From IMG/VR virus record IMGVR_UViG_3300032330_000999, positions 1 through 24,253 of that record: a DNA stretch of 24,253 bases. One strand, given 5' to 3'. The first letter of the stretch is position 1. Every line of letters starts with the position of its first letter. Source of the DNA: a virus. Lineage: Duplodnaviria; Caudoviricetes. Shown here piece by piece: positions 3,667 through 18,191 of this stretch. The notes beneath the pieces were generated by a model. The model was not told the origin of the DNA, did no database searches, and saw only the letters and a list, made by a program, of their open reading frames with translations. Both the position numbers and the translations under genes were made by a program.

Positions 3667-3981
3667 TTAACGAGCGGTAACGCGGATTGCGATTGAGACA
3701 GATTGCTTAGTGTACTTGGCGAGCAACTCGTCAGATACATTCAGGTCAGCGATGAGAGTCTTGTAGTCAACAGTGTTACGTGCAGACATAGAGACAGAGG
3801 CTTTGTAGAGGTCACCTTCATACTTGCCTTCACCAGCGTTTTTGAACGCGTCCTTGATGACTTCAGCTTGCTCAGTCAATTCAGCAATCTGAGCTTGAAG
3901 CAAACCAAGACGGTCTAAGTCCTTCATCTGAGCGGACTGGGATACTGCATCTGAAACGATTTTTGAAGTTACTGAGTTCAT
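3667..3981 (-). CDS. Hypothetical early protein with N-terminal coiled coil, 104 aa
   Basis: ATAAAGGAAATA RBS, first gene after promoter P3, tandem TAA TAA stops. Confidence 0.8.
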   Translation of the reverse strand: MNSVTSKIVSDAVSQSAQMKDLDRLGLLQAQIAELTEQAEVIKDAFKNAGEGKYEGDLYKASVSMSARNTVDYKTLIADLNVSDELLAKYTKQSVSIAIRVTAR

Positions 3982-4037: not shown

Positions 4038-4086
4038 ATTATGGTCCACTGTGCCACACAAAACAAGGACTTTATTAAAATATTTT
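4038..4086 (-). promoter_or_regulatory. Early promoter P3 (sigma70-like)
   Basis: Minus strand AAAATATTTTAATAAAGTCC-TTGTTT-N17-CATAAT. Confidence 0.78.
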
Positions 4087-4127
4087 AAGAAAAAACACCA
4101 GTGAATACCCTTGGTTCAACAGTATTC

Positions 4128-4156
4128 GGTGTTTTATTTTAGAAATAGGGCATAAT
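4128..4156 (+). promoter_or_regulatory. Putative rightward promoter for the primase-helicase, divergent from P3
   Basis: CATAAT at 4151-4156 followed by TCAC, as in P3 (CATAATTCAC); the -35 match is poor (GGTGTT). Confidence 0.45.
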
Positions 4157-4163
4157 TCACCTC

Positions 4164-4291
4164 GTTCGGTAGCTTCAATCCCTTAGTTCTACCCACTCCT
4201 CCGCAAGAGCTGACCGAACATCATGGGGATTTCGTATTCCTAGAGTGGGTAGACCTAAGGGCATTGAGCTTTTGTTAACTATTTTGCGGAG
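4164..4291 (+). ncRNA. Structured 5' leader / cis-regulatory RNA candidate upstream of the primase-helicase
   Basis: Three complementary pairs: 4164-4174 with 4208-4219, 4171-4198 with 4243-4270, 4199-4206 with 4284-4291 (covers the SD). Confidence 0.6.
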
Positions 4292-4296
4292 AATTG

Positions 4297-6324
4297 ATGA
4301 GTAAAAAGATAAACTGGGACGACAGCCAACCAGCCGTCAAACCCACGGCAGAGCTGGGTCAGAGCGAATTCCTTCATGTGCTTTTTGGTGAAGATGTTAC
4401 ACGAGGTTGTTGTCACCATATTAGTAAGAAACCCAACTGGACTCGCTACACGATTTCAGCCAAAGACATTGAGTTCAATACCGCGTTGGACTGTTACTAT
4501 TCCGTAGGGTCTTTCATCGGGGAAGGCAATGAGAAGCAGGACTCTCCAGCGATGCGAGTGTTGGTCGCGGATGATTACCCAATCGAGAAATTAGACGAGC
4601 AACAAATCACTCCGACGTATATTCTGCAGACCAGTGAGCGCAAGGTGCAGAACGATGGCACAATCAAACCGAGCTATCAAGTAGGCTTCAAGATTACAGA
4701 CGGGAATAACATTGAGCTAGCTGACAAAGTTATGCAATCGCTCTACAAGTCTGGCTACGCGGACAAGTCAGGCAACAATAGAGTTAGATTAGCGCGCTTA
4801 CCAGACAGCACCAACAACAAAGTAACTGATCAACCATTCAAAGTCAGAATGGTCTCTTGGAATCCAGGAGCAACTTTCACTCTGATGAACGTAGCTGCTC
4901 TACTCGAATTGAGTGTGGCCAAGAATGAAATTGATTTTGATCTGAACGAGCACAATAAGTTTGATATCAGTCATGCAATCACAGAGATAACTTCGGGCGC
5001 GTCATTGCACGACAATATCAATCGACTCGCCATGAGCCAGCTGGCAAAAGGCATGCGGGAGTCTGATACCATTGAGATGATTCAAGGTGTGATGCTCGGA
5101 GCCAAAGCCAGTTACGTTGAGCGCGGTGACGGAGACCGATGGCAGGAGCGATTCGAAGACATTGAGCGGTCAGTCCGAACTGCGAATGTTAAGCTCAAGA
5201 ATCGGTCAGACCCAGACGAACCTCTACTCATGCCAGTCAAGCAGTGGATTGACAAGATGATTGCGCCTGATTGGGTCATCGACGACTTTATTGGCGAAGG
5301 TGTTAGAGCGATATCGGGCGCGCAAGGTAAAGGAAAGACATCGATCATCTCTCCCCTCTGCGCGAACGTAGCTCATCTTGTTGATGCGAACTTCCTGACA
5401 CCTCGACACAGACGTGTGGTCTTCTACTTTACTGAAGACACCAATCAGATCAATCGCATGATCTACGGAATGAAGAAGCATCAGTCAAGAAAGTTTGCTA
5501 ATCCGCATGAGGAATGGGAAAAGTATTTCAAAGTCCATATGACCAAGAGATACAAAGCTGGTGACATTGAAGATTTAGCGAATCATATCAAGAACTTTAA
5601 CACATTACAAGATAACAAGTCGGTTCCACCTCTCGTTGTATTTGACACTCAAGCTGCATCTTTTGACATCGAAGACGAGAACAACAATGCCGAGCTCTCA
5701 AAATTGATCAGCCAGCTCAAGATTCATTTCTGGGAGATGAACCGAATACCAGTCTGGGTCGTGACACACATTACCAAGTCTAGCATGTCAAGCGACGACT
5801 ACGAGAAGCTCACAGCGAGGGGAGCTGGTGCCATTGCGGGAGATTCTAACGGAACGATGGGTATCGTGGACGTGGCGAATGTTGAAGGCAGAATCCTAGC
5901 GAACATCAAGGACAGAGACGGAGCGAGGCACAAAGAAGTCCGAGTCACCATCAACCATCACATAGCAGAAGGTCTTACTCCCTACGGAGATGAGACTGAC
6001 ATTGCATACTTCACTACGGATTACTTTGAGTCTTCCCCAGAACAGCGATCAGAGGAGAGAGAAGAGAACTCTGAGGAAAACCTTATTCAAGAGATCTACC
6101 GAGCTATCCACTTCTCTCAAGAGCTCGGAGAGTTTGCCACAGTCAATGGTCTTAAAGGTATGAAGCTGGGTGCTGACAAGCCAAAGATTATACAGATGCT
6201 CTCTACTTTAATCGAGAGAGGTCGTGTTGAGCGAGTAGAGAATACAGAAGAGAATCGGAAGAGATTTAAGATGCACTCTCAGACTCGAGAGATCTATGTA
6301 ATCAAAGGAGTGTTCCTTGGTTAA
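4297..6324 (+). CDS. Primase-helicase fusion (RepB-type AEP primase domain plus RecA-like AAA_25 helicase)
   Basis: N-terminal VLVADD...PTYILQTS...YQVGF...VRLARLP..TNNK fits the RepB DNA-primase pattern; Walker A GAQGKGKT, Walker B LVVFDT, VTHITK, ARGAGAIAGD. ATG 4297 is 5 nt after GGAG (track starts at TTG 4294). Confidence 0.85.
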   Translation: MSKKINWDDSQPAVKPTAELGQSEFLHVLFGEDVTRGCCHHISKKPNWTRYTISAKDIEFNTALDCYYSVGSFIGEGNEKQDSPAMRVLVADDYPIEKLDEQQITPTYILQTSERKVQNDGTIKPSYQVGFKITDGNNIELADKVMQSLYKSGYADKSGNNRVRLARLPDSTNNKVTDQPFKVRMVSWNPGATFTLMNVAALLELSVAKNEIDFDLNEHNKFDISHAITEITSGASLHDNINRLAMSQLAKGMRESDTIEMIQGVMLGAKASYVERGDGDRWQERFEDIERSVRTANVKLKNRSDPDEPLLMPVKQWIDKMIAPDWVIDDFIGEGVRAISGAQGKGKTSIISPLCANVAHLVDANFLTPRHRRVVFYFTEDTNQINRMIYGMKKHQSRKFANPHEEWEKYFKVHMTKRYKAGDIEDLANHIKNFNTLQDNKSVPPLVVFDTQAASFDIEDENNNAELSKLISQLKIHFWEMNRIPVWVVTHITKSSMSSDDYEKLTARGAGAIAGDSNGTMGIVDVANVEGRILANIKDRDGARHKEVRVTINHHIAEGLTPYGDETDIAYFTTDYFESSPEQRSEEREENSEENLIQEIYRAIHFSQELGEFATVNGLKGMKLGADKPKIIQMLSTLIERGRVERVENTEENRKRFKMHSQTREIYVIKGVFLG

Positions 6325-8405: not shown

Positions 8406-9258
8406 TGAGCAACCTGAAGAGCTAGACACTCCCGCCATGCGCGCAGAGCTGTTAAACCGCTACGGTCCAACCGAGCGACCTGAGGTCTATGACGATGGGG
8501 AATCGCTTCTTGGTCAGAACCCTGATATGTTACCTATCGGATTTAAAGTGCCTAAGCTCTTCGATGTGCCACACAACCCTTCCCGTAGAACGATGGGTCT
8601 TGATTTACCGACCGCGCCCATGACTCCGATGCCGCAACAAACACCCAACCCTCTCGAAGCGATCAAGAATCTACCTATGACACGTCGACAAGTTCTACAA
8701 ACTCCAATCAACGCTGCTGTGTCTCACATCGGTAAAGGTTTAATCGGTGAGGCAGTTGCTCCTGCTGTTGAGTCTGCTTTGACACAAGTCGCGCCCGAAG
8801 TTGCGCAATCAACTTTTGTCAGGAATCCTCTATTTGATGAATACTTTGAAGAGTACGCGGTAGCTGCTTTCAACAATGCTGCTGAAAATATGCCAAACGA
8901 AGCAGGAGTCGCAGGTTATCAAAAACTGCGTGAATATTTGGAAGATAAAATACCTGAAAAAACTTTGAAAAAATATGACAAGCTATCTGATGAAGCGGAC
9001 TACGAAAACGATGACGGGTATCTTGATAGCGCAATTGAAGCGCAAAATAAATTAGAAGATTTTATTTACGATAACTTGAAATATCTAAAACCTGATGAGC
9101 TGCAAGATTTTTCAAATCACATGATCCAGTATGACACAACACCCGAGGAGTTTGCTGATGATGTTATTAGAAATGTTTCAAACTCTGGGAATGAAGATGC
9201 TCAAATAAATCTTGATGAGTTAGTCGAATATCTTGAACGCGCACGGAGTCAAAAATAA
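8395..9258 (+). CDS. Hypothetical protein with Pro-rich N-half and very acidic C-half; possible internal virion protein
   Basis: 287 aa, overlaps the terL stop and is coupled (TAATG) to the next gene; shares MPYD and MRxEL motifs with it. Confidence 0.8.
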   Translation: MPYDEQPEELDTPAMRAELLNRYGPTERPEVYDDGESLLGQNPDMLPIGFKVPKLFDVPHNPSRRTMGLDLPTAPMTPMPQQTPNPLEAIKNLPMTRRQVLQTPINAAVSHIGKGLIGEAVAPAVESALTQVAPEVAQSTFVRNPLFDEYFEEYAVAAFNNAAENMPNEAGVAGYQKLREYLEDKIPEKTLKKYDKLSDEADYENDDGYLDSAIEAQNKLEDFIYDNLKYLKPDELQDFSNHMIQYDTTPEEFADDVIRNVSNSGNEDAQINLDELVEYLERARSQK

Positions 9259-12200
9259 TGCCATATGATGATCTAGGGAACTATATCCCAGGAGACGAAG
9301 CCGAACTCGACAAGATGCGTTACGAGCTCAGTCTGATTGATACCATCAAACAGATGGCTCGCTCTCCCGCTAACGACTTATCGATGCTCACCAAGCCACA
9401 GACCTACAAGGACATCGCCACTGGTTTAGGTTCGGCAGCTGAGTCCATGGTTCGTGGTGCTGGTGCTGCTCCGTTCGGAGTCGCTGGTGATATCATCAAA
9501 CACTTCCAAGACACTCCGCTCATTCCTGGAGTAACCGATAAGCTCTCGATCAACGATATCTTTCCTGGCTATGGCACAGTTCAGGAAGCTGTCGCGCCCA
9601 CTCCGTTTGCTTTACCTCAGCGTCGCGCGCCCAACGCGTCTTACGCGCCCGAAGTCCCGAAGCAAGAGCTGTTCGGCTTGCCGTACGTAACGACTGGCGA
9701 CATCCTCAACACCGCTGAAAAGAGATACACACCGCAGTTCGGTGACAAGGAAGCCAACGACTTTATGGAAAGTCTAGGCATGTTCATGTCTCCGCAGATG
9801 GCTGCTGGGGCGCGAACAGGAATCATCAACATGGTCGAGACCACAGGCAAGATGCCCTCGCTCGGGCGCGAGTCCGTTCAGGCATTCGCTCGCGATTACA
9901 CCAACGCGATGAACGGAGTCTACCCCGAGACACCGACTGCAGGGTCGATGGCTGCCGACTTCGCTCGCACAGGCAAAGCTGCTGGTCGTAAAGCTGGTGA
10001 AGTCGTCGGTGAAACGATTGAAGACCTCGCTCAACGCAGAGCAGCTGGCGAAGGCGCATACGCCAACCCATTCAGTCCGCAATCAGTCATGGCTGACGTC
10101 ATGGCTGGTCCACGCTCCTACGCAGTTCGCCCAGTCAACGCTGGTCAGATGATCAAAGAGACCGACTTACCAAACATCAAGTATGTTGAATCTAACCCGA
10201 AAATTCACACAATGGGCTATAAGTTTGAAGAAGACGTGCTTCCTTACACTGGTGAAGAGTTTCCGAATACGATTCGTCAAGAATATTACCAGAAAATATT
10301 TGAGAAAGATAGCGACATAAGCAGAATCTATCAAGATTGGGCAAATAACAAATTCATGCAGATGTATCCTGACGCGCCAACTCTTGATGCTGCTCGTAGC
10401 AGATACTCAAATCAAGGTAATCTGAAAGACCGCTCTAAAGACCAACTGAGAATGATGTCCGAGTTTGCTGAATCTCCAGAAGTCAATGAGCATTTGAATC
10501 AAGTCTCAAGCGCACGTGATTCAGCTATTGAAGAATACAACGAGGTTAAGAACAAACCTAAAGACGAACTCAAGACTGACGAAGAAAAAGAGTTACACAA
10601 AGCCAAGATTGATGAGCTCGAATTAGAACTCCTCAAGAATGACTTCGCGCCCGAACTCACTTCTGAACAATACCGTAAACGCATTGAGATCCCGACTGCC
10701 GAAGAGTATCTGCGTCGTGCTAATGCTGCCCGCAAATACATCATGGGTGAGTTCCGTAACGATATCGCCAAATACACAGGAACTTCGCAAGGTCCACAGA
10801 TGGAACTCGCTAAGAAGGGTATCACCTTCGTGCCCAAAGAGGATCTGTTAAGGAAGTCCAGAGAGATTACCCAAGGTGGGCAAGATTTCCGCGACTTACA
10901 GAAAAAACGTGAAGAAGCTGGTTTCAAGGCTTTAGGTGAGATGCAACCGCTCATCGATCAGAAAGAAGCTGAGCTCGCTAAGTTACAAGAAGATCTGAAC
11001 GCGATGAATGCGAAGCGTAATGACTTGCGTGATCAACATCGATTAATGATGCCTGACGAACCTGATCCTGCTCGTAACCCGACCGAGATTGGCGCACAGT
11101 ACCGCGCCCTAAAGAACCCAATGAGCTCTCTCATCGATAAGATGGAGAAAACCAAGAAGCAAGTTCAGAACTTCCAACTCGCTAATGCGTATGAAACAAT
11201 CAGTGACTTGGCTTATACTCCATATCCTGCTTCTCATTGGCGCAAAGTAATTCCTTACGAGCAGAAAGACTTTTTCCCTGATCTATTCGCTAAACGTGAG
11301 AATGGTGAATACAAGATTCCTGATGACGCACCGATGTTCAACGTCGATACGAGAAGAGTAAAACAGATAGGCACTGACACCCTCGCTGAACAGTATACCG
11401 ACGCAATCCTAGATGGGCGCGTTCCTATCGATGACAAAGGAAAGCCAGCTGTCTCTATTGATAAGTTCATTGAACAGATCACCAGACCTCGTGTGAAAGA
11501 GGAAGAACTGAAAAACATTGAAGGAGCTCGAGCCAAAATTCGTTTGAACGATTACGCTCAGAACACTCTAGCTTCAATTCCTGCTGATATGAGATTCCAG
11601 AACGCTTCCGCGTTAGAGCTGACTAGTGACAACCCAATGCCTGTCATCCGTCGTCAAGTCAGTTTTGACGGTATGGTGTTAGACAACTGCGTAGCAGGTT
11701 GTTCCGCGCCCCATCCAGGAATAAATCCATTCACTAATCAAAGTTATAATAATTCGTATCCTGTTGACGTAGCTACTGGCGCTAATCGCGGTGACCGTCA
11801 ATTCAACTCAAGTTATATGGAAGCGATTCGTGACGGTGATCAGCGTTACGCTTCCCTTCGTGATAACGACACTGGTATACCTGTCGTCAATATCAATATG
11901 TTAAAAACTTCAGGTAGCGGATCGGCTAATCCTAAGTACAACGTACAGTATGTCTCTGGTTATCAAAACAATCAAATTGATAAAAAGTACACCAACGATG
12001 TTCGTGATTACCTCAACGCTCGTGCTGATATCATTCAAGGTTCAGGTGATGGACTCAACAAGTGGGGTATCTTTGATTTGACTTCCCCTGCAGGTCAAAG
12101 AGCAGCTGGTCGCGCCCTCGGTGTTCCCGAAACTGCACTCAGTTCGTTTGACCTGCCACGCTTCGTTACCGAAAAAGACATCCGTGACTTAGCCAGCAAG

Positions 12201-14741
12201 CAACCTGTTGGTGAAAGCCACGCAGACCTCGTTGCTGCTCGTGACCGCTTGTCTGAAGAGCTCCGACCATTGATAAGAGATTACGGATTTGGTGCACCAG
12301 AGACCCATGACATACAAGATCAACTTACAGATATTGAAGCACGTCTGGCTGCTATATCTAATCAAGTCCGAAACGCACCTTCAACTCAAGGTTTCACTTC
12401 GAACTTGTTCCGTCGTATGAGTACCGAGCCTTTGCGGAATGGGCTGGAACTAGAAGGCGGATTAGATAGAGTCTCGACTATTATTGACAACCTTATTGAT
12501 CAAGACAGTTTTGGATTGAGAGAGCTCTGGTCAGACGATTATGAGTTCTACCCAGTCGCATTGAGAAATTTCATCAATGGTATTCGCAATGGTGAGAACT
12601 TACCTGTAATATTAACAAATAGAACAGATGCATCCGCTTTCGCTACTCAAATGCGTGACCGTCTGGCTAGATTCCAAATTGGGATTGAAGACTTGACTCC
12701 GATGCAAAGAGAGTTATTAGTTCGTGAACTTGACAACTATGCTGAGACAAACATCAATCAGATGGCTGACACTTTAGACGACGATACAGTTGATGGTCTT
12801 CGGTTAATTGAAGACAACCATCCTGGAACAATTCAATATTTGCAAGATATTGAGACCCGTAGACGTGGTCAAGACTTCCAACCAGAGACTCAAGCTAGAC
12901 CAGCTCTTGGAGCGCCAACTAACGTACCTCGTGATATCGCTGAACAACTAGTCCCTACGAATCAAGCATTCAGAGACCAAACTGTTCAAGAAGTAACTGA
13001 AGCGTTAAACAACTCAGTCAGAAATTTACCCACAGATAGAGAAACGATTATTGAAGCTATCGATCAGTACAATCGTGATCCGCTTGATATTCCTGGATCG
13101 ATAGCAATGATATTACCAATTGCTTCTGATCGAACAGTTGTTTCTAATTATCTTGTTCAGCATCTTCAAAGCAGGCTCGGTGAAAGAAACGCTGAACTTC
13201 GAGCACCTGCGACTCCAGTTGGTGAGAACGTATCAAGAGCGATAGATTCAAATAGACAAGCACTAACTCAAACCTATCCGCATCAAACGAATAATTTTGA
13301 ATTGATTCATAACGACGCGCAAAACAATGCGGTTATGGCTGCTAGACAAGGTCGAGATGCAAACAATGCATATCTTGATACTATTCAAACTCATATTGAT
13401 CGCTTAAGAAGAGGTCGCCAAACAACTGAGCGAGTAGAGCTTATGCCTCTTGTTCAAGAATTTTATGACGATGTTGCTAGAGCAACAGCACGTGATGGCA
13501 TTGCACCTGCCCAACTTCCTGTACCTCAAGGCGCTCCTCAGCGTTCAACTGCACAGATGAACGCGGTGACTGATTTAGTTATGCAGTTATTTAGAAGTTT
13601 TGAAGCGCAACAATTTGATCGTGGTGATTTAACCTCTACTCTTCATGCACTTGACGCTCGTAACTTTGATCATCCAAGGTTAAGAACCATGTCCGCGGAG
13701 GTAGGCGCACCAGCAAGCGATCAAGTTCAAGAAGACGTTGCTTCAGCGTTACGCGTATTGCTTCAAGGTCGTAATATCGATGTTCCTCCTGATATTTTTG
13801 CTAACGGAGTTGAAGTTCAAGCAGCACCTCCACGTCCTGCTGTTTTAAACGATGAGACAATTGCAAGTTATCGTGACCATTACACAAATCCTGAAACTAA
13901 TTCAAACCGCGCATTTGACAATGTCATGCTAGCTGAGCGTATGACTCCTGGAGCGATAAATGAAGCTATTCTAAGAACGGATGGTCAAGCGAGGTATGAC
14001 GTAGACATTCAGCGATTTTATAACGTTGACTCTCCTGCTGGAATTAGCCAGCTGAACAACGCGCTTCGTCGATACATGGAAGATAACGGATTTGATGTTC
14101 CTCCTCGTCCACTTGAAAACGCAATTGATGAATTAGAAGCGCGATTCCCTGCTCGTGAAGAAGCGGTAGTCGAACCTGAGGCAGCACTTCAAGGCTCGTT
14201 AGAAGCAGCACGTGAGTTTTATAATGACGCTGTTGTTCAAGAGATGACAGATCTTGTTGACAATATTCAGAATGATGATATTCGTTTTGACAGAGAACCT
14301 GATGAATTCCTTGCTCGTTTGAGAGATGAAGCAAACGAGTATGCTGATCACAATCAAGCGTATTCGAATGCCGTCGATGAAATGGCTAATTTCTTAGAGA
14401 ACTACATGCGTGAACGTGCAGCTAACAGACCTGAAGGTCGTAAGCGTGGAGGTTACATCAAGAAGAAAATGATGAATGGTGGCGGTAAGGTAGAACCTGT
14501 TTCTCCTTCTTCAACTGTCAATGACCAGAGTAAGCCAGTCACACCTCCGAAGAAAATTATCAACCCAGACGCGCCCGAATTCAAAGATATTTATAACCGC
14601 GAGAGAGCGATTCGTGGAGGTGGAGGCGGTAGTGGTTCACCTGCCGATTTGAAACAAATGATGAATCCAAGAAATATAACTTATAATGCTGGTGGTAATG
14701 TCAGCGTTGATCAAATGCGTTACGAACTGCTAAGGAAATAA
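9258..14741 (+). CDS. Giant multidomain protein (1827 aa) with a PcfJ-like domain; probable internal virion / ejected effector protein
   Basis: Uninterrupted 5.5 kb ORF between terL and portal; DGMVLDNCVAG...Y...IRDG..RYASLRD..GIPVVNI...SGYQN resembles PcfJ. The ORF is certain, the function is inferred. Confidence 0.7.
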   Translation: MPYDDLGNYIPGDEAELDKMRYELSLIDTIKQMARSPANDLSMLTKPQTYKDIATGLGSAAESMVRGAGAAPFGVAGDIIKHFQDTPLIPGVTDKLSINDIFPGYGTVQEAVAPTPFALPQRRAPNASYAPEVPKQELFGLPYVTTGDILNTAEKRYTPQFGDKEANDFMESLGMFMSPQMAAGARTGIINMVETTGKMPSLGRESVQAFARDYTNAMNGVYPETPTAGSMAADFARTGKAAGRKAGEVVGETIEDLAQRRAAGEGAYANPFSPQSVMADVMAGPRSYAVRPVNAGQMIKETDLPNIKYVESNPKIHTMGYKFEEDVLPYTGEEFPNTIRQEYYQKIFEKDSDISRIYQDWANNKFMQMYPDAPTLDAARSRYSNQGNLKDRSKDQLRMMSEFAESPEVNEHLNQVSSARDSAIEEYNEVKNKPKDELKTDEEKELHKAKIDELELELLKNDFAPELTSEQYRKRIEIPTAEEYLRRANAARKYIMGEFRNDIAKYTGTSQGPQMELAKKGITFVPKEDLLRKSREITQGGQDFRDLQKKREEAGFKALGEMQPLIDQKEAELAKLQEDLNAMNAKRNDLRDQHRLMMPDEPDPARNPTEIGAQYRALKNPMSSLIDKMEKTKKQVQNFQLANAYETISDLAYTPYPASHWRKVIPYEQKDFFPDLFAKRENGEYKIPDDAPMFNVDTRRVKQIGTDTLAEQYTDAILDGRVPIDDKGKPAVSIDKFIEQITRPRVKEEELKNIEGARAKIRLNDYAQNTLASIPADMRFQNASALELTSDNPMPVIRRQVSFDGMVLDNCVAGCSAPHPGINPFTNQSYNNSYPVDVATGANRGDRQFNSSYMEAIRDGDQRYASLRDNDTGIPVVNINMLKTSGSGSANPKYNVQYVSGYQNNQIDKKYTNDVRDYLNARADIIQGSGDGLNKWGIFDLTSPAGQRAAGRALGVPETALSSFDLPRFVTEKDIRDLASKQPVGESHADLVAARDRLSEELRPLIRDYGFGAPETHDIQDQLTDIEARLAAISNQVRNAPSTQGFTSNLFRRMSTEPLRNGLELEGGLDRVSTIIDNLIDQDSFGLRELWSDDYEFYPVALRNFINGIRNGENLPVILTNRTDASAFATQMRDRLARFQIGIEDLTPMQRELLVRELDNYAETNINQMADTLDDDTVDGLRLIEDNHPGTIQYLQDIETRRRGQDFQPETQARPALGAPTNVPRDIAEQLVPTNQAFRDQTVQEVTEALNNSVRNLPTDRETIIEAIDQYNRDPLDIPGSIAMILPIASDRTVVSNYLVQHLQSRLGERNAELRAPATPVGENVSRAIDSNRQALTQTYPHQTNNFELIHNDAQNNAVMAARQGRDANNAYLDTIQTHIDRLRRGRQTTERVELMPLVQEFYDDVARATARDGIAPAQLPVPQGAPQRSTAQMNAVTDLVMQLFRSFEAQQFDRGDLTSTLHALDARNFDHPRLRTMSAEVGAPASDQVQEDVASALRVLLQGRNIDVPPDIFANGVEVQAAPPRPAVLNDETIASYRDHYTNPETNSNRAFDNVMLAERMTPGAINEAILRTDGQARYDVDIQRFYNVDSPAGISQLNNALRRYMEDNGFDVPPRPLENAIDELEARFPAREEAVVEPEAALQGSLEAAREFYNDAVVQEMTDLVDNIQNDDIRFDREPDEFLARLRDEANEYADHNQAYSNAVDEMANFLENYMRERAANRPEGRKRGGYIKKKMMNGGGKVEPVSPSSTVNDQSKPVTPPKKIINPDAPEFKDIYNRERAIRGGGGGSGSPADLKQMMNPRNITYNAGGNVSVDQMRYELLRK

Positions 14742-17593: not shown

Positions 17594-17782
17594 TTGAACA
17601 TCGTTAACGAGCTCATAACTAGGATCAAACAAAAGCAACAGGAGATTTCTGAGGCAATGCTTAACGGCAATTGCATCAATTTTGAAAGTTACCAGCGTTT
17701 GGTCGGTCAGAACTTAGGTTTGGAAGAAACCTTGAATATTCTGAACAACATGATAGAGGAGCAAAATAAAGATGTTGAATGA
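17594..17782 (+). CDS. Small helical hypothetical protein upstream of GroES
   Basis: 62 aa, TTG start abutting the previous stop, GAGG upstream; YQRLVG...GL pattern recalled from genes in this position. Confidence 0.7.
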   Translation: MNIVNELITRIKQKQQEISEAMLNGNCINFESYQRLVGQNLGLEETLNILNNMIEEQNKDVE

Positions 17783-18191
17783 TGCAGAACAAACTCTGGA
17801 AGAAGCGTTTCCCGTAGTAGATCCTTTGATGGCACCTTATGGCGCGAGAGTGCTAGTGCAATTACGAGCTGTCAAAGAGCGAGTAACTCAGGCAGGTTTA
17901 TTGCTTCCAGAAGAAGTAAAGGAGACTGAGAAGTGGAACACCATGATCGGTAAGGTCATCGCAATTGGACCACTCGCATTTTGTAATCGTGATACGCAGC
18001 AACCTTGGCCAGAAGGCTCTTGGGCGCAAGTAGGCGATTTCGTGCGTGTGCCTAAGTGGGGTGGCGATCGATGGGAAATTGATTTTGAAGATAAAGGTTT
18101 AAAGGGCAAAGCATTGTTTACGTTCTTTAATGACCATGAATTAATCGGAAAAGTTACTGGTGACCCACGCTCAATTAAAGCGTTCATCTAA
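17772..18191 (+). CDS. groES: Phage co-chaperonin GroES (Cpn10)
   Basis: PYGARVLVQ, mobile loop TQAGLLLPE, GKVIAIGP, VGDFV..PKWGG. Confidence 0.88.
   Translation: MLNDAEQTLEEAFPVVDPLMAPYGARVLVQLRAVKERVTQAGLLLPEEVKETEKWNTMIGKVIAIGPLAFCNRDTQQPWPEGSWAQVGDFVRVPKWGGDRWEIDFEDKGLKGKALFTFFNDHELIGKVTGDPRSIKAFI

Follow-up and report, generated by a model that had tools for sequence, protein, structure and literature searches.

A conserved leader RNA with competing helices and a predicted RNase III site upstream of a phage primase-helicase gene

The window analysed here is a 24,253-nt stretch of DNA from a virus of the Caudoviricetes (positions 1 to 24,253 of IMG/VR record IMGVR_UViG_3300032330_000999). 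It holds a 133-nt leader between a leftward gene that ends at position 3981 and a rightward gene that starts at 4297 and encodes a 675-aa protein. The protein has an AAA_25 helicase domain (E = 4e-16), and its N-terminus matches the RepB_primase region of P0024 in a profile comparison (probability 99.7%). It is reasonable to regard it as a primase-helicase, the primase part being a putative RepB'-type primase-like N-terminus. Among GenBank phages the protein had one distant match (27.5% over 43%), a sequence search of the PDB returned no significant match, and its AlphaFold model had a mean pLDDT of 50.5. Gene order is conserved: the rightward arm opens with the leader, and the terminase and virion genes come later. 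The leader and its flanks consist of the following parts.

4152..4157, + strand: -10-like hexamer of a predicted promoter; its A, A and T positions are invariant in 23 of 23 aligned leaders
4164..4175, + strand: 5' strand of helix A; overlaps the base of helix B
4171..4198, + strand: 5' strand of helix B; 4171-4186 is its outer part, then come a conserved mismatch at 4187 and 11 inner pairs at 4188-4198
4188..4255, + strand: predicted 68-nt inner RNA between putative RNase III cuts 4187^4188 and 4255^4256, from the register scan
4199..4206, + strand: 5' strand of helix C (anti-Shine-Dalgarno), with the 3' strand of A directly after it
4207..4219, + strand: 3' strand of helix A
4224..4242, + strand: hairpin D, whose sequence varies, with two-sided changes at 5 of its 7 pairs in alignment A5
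4243..4270, + strand: 3' strand of helix B; conserved mismatch partner at 4254
4271..4283, + strand: U/A-rich spacer after B with a weak U tract; no terminator called
4284..4291, + strand: 3' strand of helix C with the Shine-Dalgarno at 4288-4291
4297..6324, + strand: gene for the 675-aa probable primase-helicase, the first of the rightward arm (AAA_25 match, profile alignment, gene order)

Re-checking every stretch placed helices A, B and C and the small hairpin D (4224-4242) where the preliminary description of this DNA had them. Helix A (4164-4174 with 4208-4219) has 11 pairs and one bulge, and is lengthened by a U-G pair, 4175/4207. Helix B (4171-4198 with 4243-4270) has 26 pairs in the MFE structure and shares 4171-4174 with A. 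The short T run reported after B is also present, as 5 T among the 8 bases downstream. In helix C, 4199-4206 matches the reverse complement of 4284-4291 exactly; the latter strand ends in GGAG 5 nt upstream of the ATG at 4297, and an exact 8-mer complement over the GGAG arises in 0.9% of shuffles. The fold of 4150-4310 has z = -3.89, with 0 of 200 shuffles equally good, and its MFE structure consists of B and D.

To collect homologues, we scanned viral and metagenome contigs on the basis of the protein, which gave 23 distinct leaders including that of the window. Where 24 leaders are counted below, one is a duplicate of these 23. The full layout is found in 23/23 distinct leaders, each directly upstream of a related AAA_25 primase-helicase gene, and the other loci of the AAA_25 clade with upstream DNA gave the same leader sequences again. 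The proteins encoded downstream are of both the RepB' type and the PriCT_2 type, which share the helicase clade. With DNA patterns for the B core we retrieved 10 and 9 stretches, of which 9 and 9, respectively, precede a primase-helicase gene; L009, the one exception, lacks this gene and was set aside as a chance match. A further search gave ten matches, eight of them known contigs, with L099 and L101 lacking a match to R1, a model built from 15 close leaders. R1 missed the divergent copies L022, L029, L034 and L039, so that its blanks are weak evidence of absence; this applies also to the distant AAA_25 relatives, none of which matched R1. Seven distant relatives came from a genome-contig search and none carries the leader element. 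We also fetched 80 loci by their terminase. Those relatives among them that encode a Toprim+DUF5906 protein in the primase-helicase slot carry another leader there, as judged with R1 and by inspection of 17 leaders.

The Toprim (DUF3854)+DUF5906 relatives L128, L137, L152, L143-L145, L148, L150, L151, L154 and L158 carry a 10-14 bp hairpin shortly upstream of the RBS, directly before a gene for 690-710 aa. L128, L137 and L152 have in common an additional paired region upstream of this hairpin. This is possibly a different regulatory leader.

Leader and gene form a mosaic, with a Spearman correlation of 0.26 overall. The leaders of the window and L028 are 86% identical, while their helicases are 47% identical and their N-terminal domains have no BLAST similarity. 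Conversely, L029 and L027 have helicases that are 91% identical and leaders that are 55% identical. The leader moves as a module between unrelated primase genes. When the window (4297-6324) is set beside L028, L073, L024, L027 and L029, primase domain, helicase domain and leader are seen to reassort independently.

The preliminary description had proposed covariation in homologous leaders as a check on its helices. Eleven of the 23 leaders were chosen to represent separate lineages, and each strand was paired with its cognate partner and with those of the ten other lineages. Helices A, B and C each covary (permutation p = 1e-5 each). Cognate partners pair better than swapped ones, with duplex energies of -16.9 against -11.1 kcal/mol for A, -39.7 against -19.5 kcal/mol for B, and -12.3 against -8.2 kcal/mol for C. 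In A5, a sequence-only alignment of 15 closer leaders, 12 of 33 pairs in B and D are changed on both sides (0/500 shuffles as high). The same alignment has 9 of 27 pairs in A, C and D changed on both sides (1/500 shuffles), five of the nine lying in D. Column by column helix C is weak there, with 65.6% and 46.7% of cells paired, because its register shifts. Shuffles of individual leaders gave p ≤ 0.05 for helix A in 21/24 and for helix C in 15/24. The core of C is only 6-10 bp, and its 3' strand ends 2-11 nt upstream of the start codon in all 24 leaders. In helix B, G-U pairs are far commoner than A-C across the leaders (21 versus 1; 13 versus 1 in the 11 lineages), so that it is the + strand that folds, as a single strand. 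Most lineages show high conservation in the inner arm of B.

A -10-like box stands upstream of helix A in all copies, 0-7 nt from the A duplex. The -35 of the predicted promoter is weak, and a consensus promoter scan of the window did not call the box at 4152..4157. The conserved box puts the likely start of transcription near 4164, where helix A begins. Covariation, the G-U excess, the -10-like box and the position of helix C together make it very likely that the stretch is a 5' leader RNA. The preliminary description had suggested a switch-like leader able to hide the primase-helicase RBS; the element is conserved and helix C does cover the Shine-Dalgarno, from which we infer a block on translation. 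That helix C represses translation in some state is probable.

A conserved 10-nt motif lies at 4101-4110 (+), upstream of the -10-like box. It is found 175-212 nt before the start codon in 19/23 leaders (18 on the + strand, 1 reversed), and the motif has one copy in the window and 0-2 in each of three related genomes. Possibly it is a binding site for an activator of the leader promoter or of a divergent promoter. Around it is a second imperfect inverted repeat, 4085-4142 (-16.2 kcal/mol), with A/T runs on its flanks; the corresponding repeat is degraded in L001 and L002.

We then asked which of the helices could coexist. A and B overlap by 1-5 nt in 21/24 leaders, the exceptions being L001, L002 and L075. 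When the transcript ends before the 3' strand of B, helix A is in the MFE structure in 11/11 lineages. Once this strand is present, B is more stable than the A state by about 19-32 kcal/mol. Three separately covarying, competing helices are uncommon evidence for a real switch. As to helix C, the preliminary description had combined it with B in a pseudoknot over the RBS, a prediction that the geometry favours less than pairing of C alongside A. The 5' strand of C running straight into the 3' strand of A is the geometry of an H-type pseudoknot, and the gap between the two strands is 0 in 8/11 lineages (-3, -2 and +6 in the others). Hairpin D is weak or missing in some lineages, three of which have another hairpin, inserted between B and C and never between C and A. 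In a rough A-form calculation for B with C, stacked helices are beyond the reach of the linker in 9/11 lineages, and a folded-back form is within reach in 11/11. The abutting strands, the placement of the extra hairpins and the reach of the linkers favour A with C over B with C, and in this modelling C more likely pairs alongside A.

Helix B looks like an RNase III processing site. The preliminary description had rightly seen an imperfect inverted repeat here and had missed the features that recall this enzyme. The whole helix has about 24-30 pairs across leaders. In 23/23 there is a mismatch after 11-13 inner pairs, pyrimidine-pyrimidine in 22 of them. An idealised RNase III substrate is 22 bp (PMC3867540), and B has the inner 11-13 pairs that a helix of about 22 bp, with 11 on each side of the cut, would call for. 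We scored the proximal-box rules of PMC1540722 (A-U or U-A at positions 2 and 4, A-U at 3 and G-C at 1) along 12 registers. The register centred on the mismatch was the best of the 12, with 55/88 matches versus 17-47 elsewhere (column-shuffle p = 0.009 for the fixed register, p = 0.096 when the best of 12 is allowed). In this register, 8/11 lineages have A-U or U-A (or U.C at 4) at positions 2 and 4 in both halves, compared to at most 2 in other registers. The stringent position 2 is invariant in the outer half (23/23), and the inner half fits only two of the four positions, the other two matching in 1/11 and 0/11. The distal box is U-A in 7/11 (outer) and 9/11 (inner) lineages and U-G in 2/11 and 1/11.

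The two central positions of the site are less typical. One is mismatched in 23/23 leaders and the other is G-C in 18/23, so that in none of the 23 are both paired. Both are paired in about 90% of E. coli targets in vivo, usually with G-C, though in vitro work, as noted in the same source, found them mostly unpaired (PMC6212723). A mismatch may restrict RNase III to cutting one strand (PMC3867540). The predicted cuts, 4187^4188 and 4255^4256, would release a 68-nt RNA (67-80 nt in homologues) that includes the anti-Shine-Dalgarno strand of C together with the 3' strand of A. This inner piece keeps a narrow size though its internal hairpins differ. From the predicted cut to the start codon is 39-51 nt in 23/23 leaders, about 41 nt in the window, and after such a cut the Shine-Dalgarno region is computed to be 33-71% unpaired.

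These features suggest a mechanism to which we assign a probability of about 0.45: the leader would lock the RBS until it refolds into a long stem that host RNase III cuts. Transcription would start near 4164 and helix A, the computed first fold, would form. Helix C would then pair the loop of A with the Shine-Dalgarno, the resulting H-type pseudoknot of A and C blocking translation. Since B is favoured over the A state by about 19-32 kcal/mol and the two cannot fully coexist, delayed refolding to B is predicted. Host RNase III would cut B and remove the 68-nt piece with the anti-Shine-Dalgarno, leaving an mRNA that starts about 41 nt before the AUG. The expected effect is delayed, limited and host RNase III-dependent synthesis of the replication protein. 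In a variant, C would form on a folded-back B with the same result, off until cut. The mechanism is weakest in its kinetics: in a nested model, going from A to B meets a barrier of 15.5-24.4 kcal/mol, too high for the RNA to refold spontaneously unless B nucleates inside the loop of A or a helper acts. B might also form at once rather than after a delay in A.

If this mechanism holds, the phage delays or meters its replication protein by RNA folding and one host nuclease, using a compact 133-nt device with exact predicted cut sites and natural compensatory variants. A bolder version, which we consider doubtful, would make it an RNA timer that works without a protein. A metastable A and C pseudoknot would lock the Shine-Dalgarno, refolding would make the RNase III site, and a single cut would both turn the mRNA on and release a 67-80-nt small RNA with seeds against the 5' end and the Shine-Dalgarno of later transcripts. 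The leader would then do with RNase III what CI does for P4 immunity, having arisen independently in phages without repressor or integrase.

RNase III frees an occluded RBS in E. coli adhE and in lambda cIII (PMC5371410). As in those leaders, leader structure here would occlude the RBS until RNase III makes its predicted cut. Lambda cIII also has alternative mRNA structures (PMC6524683), comparable to the alternative folds of our leader. No sequence relation to either was found. What sets the present leader apart from adhE and cIII is that the loop of the predicted RNase III stem holds the anti-Shine-Dalgarno strand, and that this stem has a competitor in a third helix, formed by the 5' end. 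The preliminary description had not recognised the family, and against Rfam 15 we found no match at the gathering score in the window or in nine related loci. The best weak match (E = 5.4) is to another stretch. Blastn of the leader against annotated phages and plasmids gave no match, and we found no description of the element in the literature. The table of cis-candidates in PMC10690425 holds no PriCT_2+AAA_25 or RepB_primase context; this covers the table only, and an earlier computational listing is possible. An HDV-like ribozyme was also considered. In such ribozymes, guanines of P1.1 come after P1, and J4/2 holds a conserved catalytic C. No G directly follows A in 11/11 lineages, there is no conserved C before the 3' strand of B and no Rfam match, and the candidate was rejected. 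The leader is a real RNA without an Rfam family; by analogy, it likely works like the RNase III-activated and alternative-fold leaders while being a member of none of their families.

An attenuator is an unlikely alternative to the RNase III-dependent lock. B and its U tract would be a terminator and A the antiterminator, gating the rightward arm with the primase-helicase, terminase and virion genes, while C silences the read-through RNA. The position of the leader at the head of this arm fits, as do the overlap of A with the base of B in 21/24 leaders and a U-rich tract after B in 23/23, with 3-6 T in the first 8 bases. The tract, however, is short and interrupted (3/8 T in two leaders), the loop is 40-54 nt, a terminator scan of the window calls no site, and A does not overlap B in L001, L002 and L075. 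An attenuator also leaves the inner arm of 11-13 bp and the central mismatch unexplained. In attenuators of the pT181/pIP501 type, too, the leader of a rep gene has two folds that exclude each other (PMC8383071). Our leader differs from these in its weak U tract, its 40-54-nt loop and the lack of a supported countertranscript.

Control in trans as by CI and C4 RNAs is unlikely. The excised 67-80-nt RNA would accumulate and pair with the helix A 5' end and the Shine-Dalgarno of new transcripts, giving feedback or superinfection exclusion. CI and C4 RNAs are processed by RNase P and have a tRNA-like end, whereas helix B has the look of an RNase III site. ACC follows the inner helix in 22/23 leaders and is paired within B; L039 lacks it, so that an RNase P or tRNA-like end is not universal. 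The upstream and downstream targets of C4 are repeats. Here the two targets are not repeats of each other, their longest shared word being 3-6 nt in the 11 lineages. The likeness in layout raised in the preliminary description does stand. Like P4 CI, P1/P7 C4 and Gifsy-1 IsrK, the leader of a replication gene here has a closed inner RNA between complementary targets up- and downstream (PMC4825925), and the covariation of A and C supports the complementarity to both sides. The arrangement is that of P4 seqA-CI-seqC, where the targets flank a processed RNA that controls replication genes (PMC4825925). The narrow size of the inner piece despite differing internal hairpins, and a hairpin D that varies between close relatives, would also suit a small RNA.

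Membership in this group fails, as there is no Rfam match (C4, c4-2 or IsrK), no repeated target and no lysogeny gene. None of five related genomes, four of them at least 90% complete, has a match to a tyrosine integrase, resolvase, ParA or HTH_3, so there is no sign of a lysogenic state to maintain. The phages are uncultured, no repressor was found in them, and the leader heads the arm that holds their primase-helicase and virion genes. The short core of helix C also argues against action in trans. Cofolding for pairing in trans gave 0 to -2.1 kcal/mol, from a nested model that cannot represent loop pairing.

Antisense control as in plasmid rep leaders is improbable. A countertranscript from a promoter over the start codon would block B and trap the off state of A and C. 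The promoter-like score of the - strand does have its peak 20-22 nt upstream of the AUG, the highest among 340 positions (6.4 vs 4.7 ± 0.4). This signal, though, equals the composition controls (observed 69.0, null 69.4-70.0, p = 0.57-0.68; synonymous-codon control p = 0.22) and is missing at that position in L022 and L029, and no ParA or other plasmid-state gene was found in the related genomes. An IncI-type pseudoknot, to which the preliminary description had likened the leader, is not supported. IncI rep leaders have a coupled leader peptide, and here no ORF is conserved in position across the 11 lineages. The rep pseudoknot of I-complex plasmids (ColIb-P9 repZ) forms upstream of the RBS; translation depends on it, and the Inc antisense RNA blocks it (PMC8383071). 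Both are pseudoknots from a loop to the RBS region in the leader of a replication gene. There, however, the Shine-Dalgarno is free and translation is activated, while here the 3' strand of C includes the purine tract before the start codon.

There is likewise a slim chance of autoregulation, with the primase-helicase binding its own leader and stabilising the off fold. The confinement of the element to one AAA_25 clade, and its absence from the Toprim+DUF5906 relatives in the same slot, would be expected of such a pair, but the mosaic of leader and gene described above for the window with L028 and for L029 with L027 argues against it. A DNA element, either a replication origin or a single-strand priming hairpin for the primase, is highly improbable. 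In its favour, the stretch adjoins a replication gene, the inner arm of B is conserved, and RepB'-type primases recognise DNA hairpins. Against it, the G-U excess rules out a symmetric cruciform (a hairpin of + strand ssDNA would still fit), the position of helix C follows the Shine-Dalgarno and that of the 5' end the -10-like box, and one and the same leader is found before two primase domains that are unrelated.

Further along the rightward arm, a gene for a GroES-like (Cpn10) protein lies among the head genes (window 17772-18191, +) and is present in the related genome G002 too. Between the terminase and the gene in the portal position, the window encodes an 1827-aa protein without a Pfam match (9258-14741, +), and the length of the gene in this slot varies widely across relatives.
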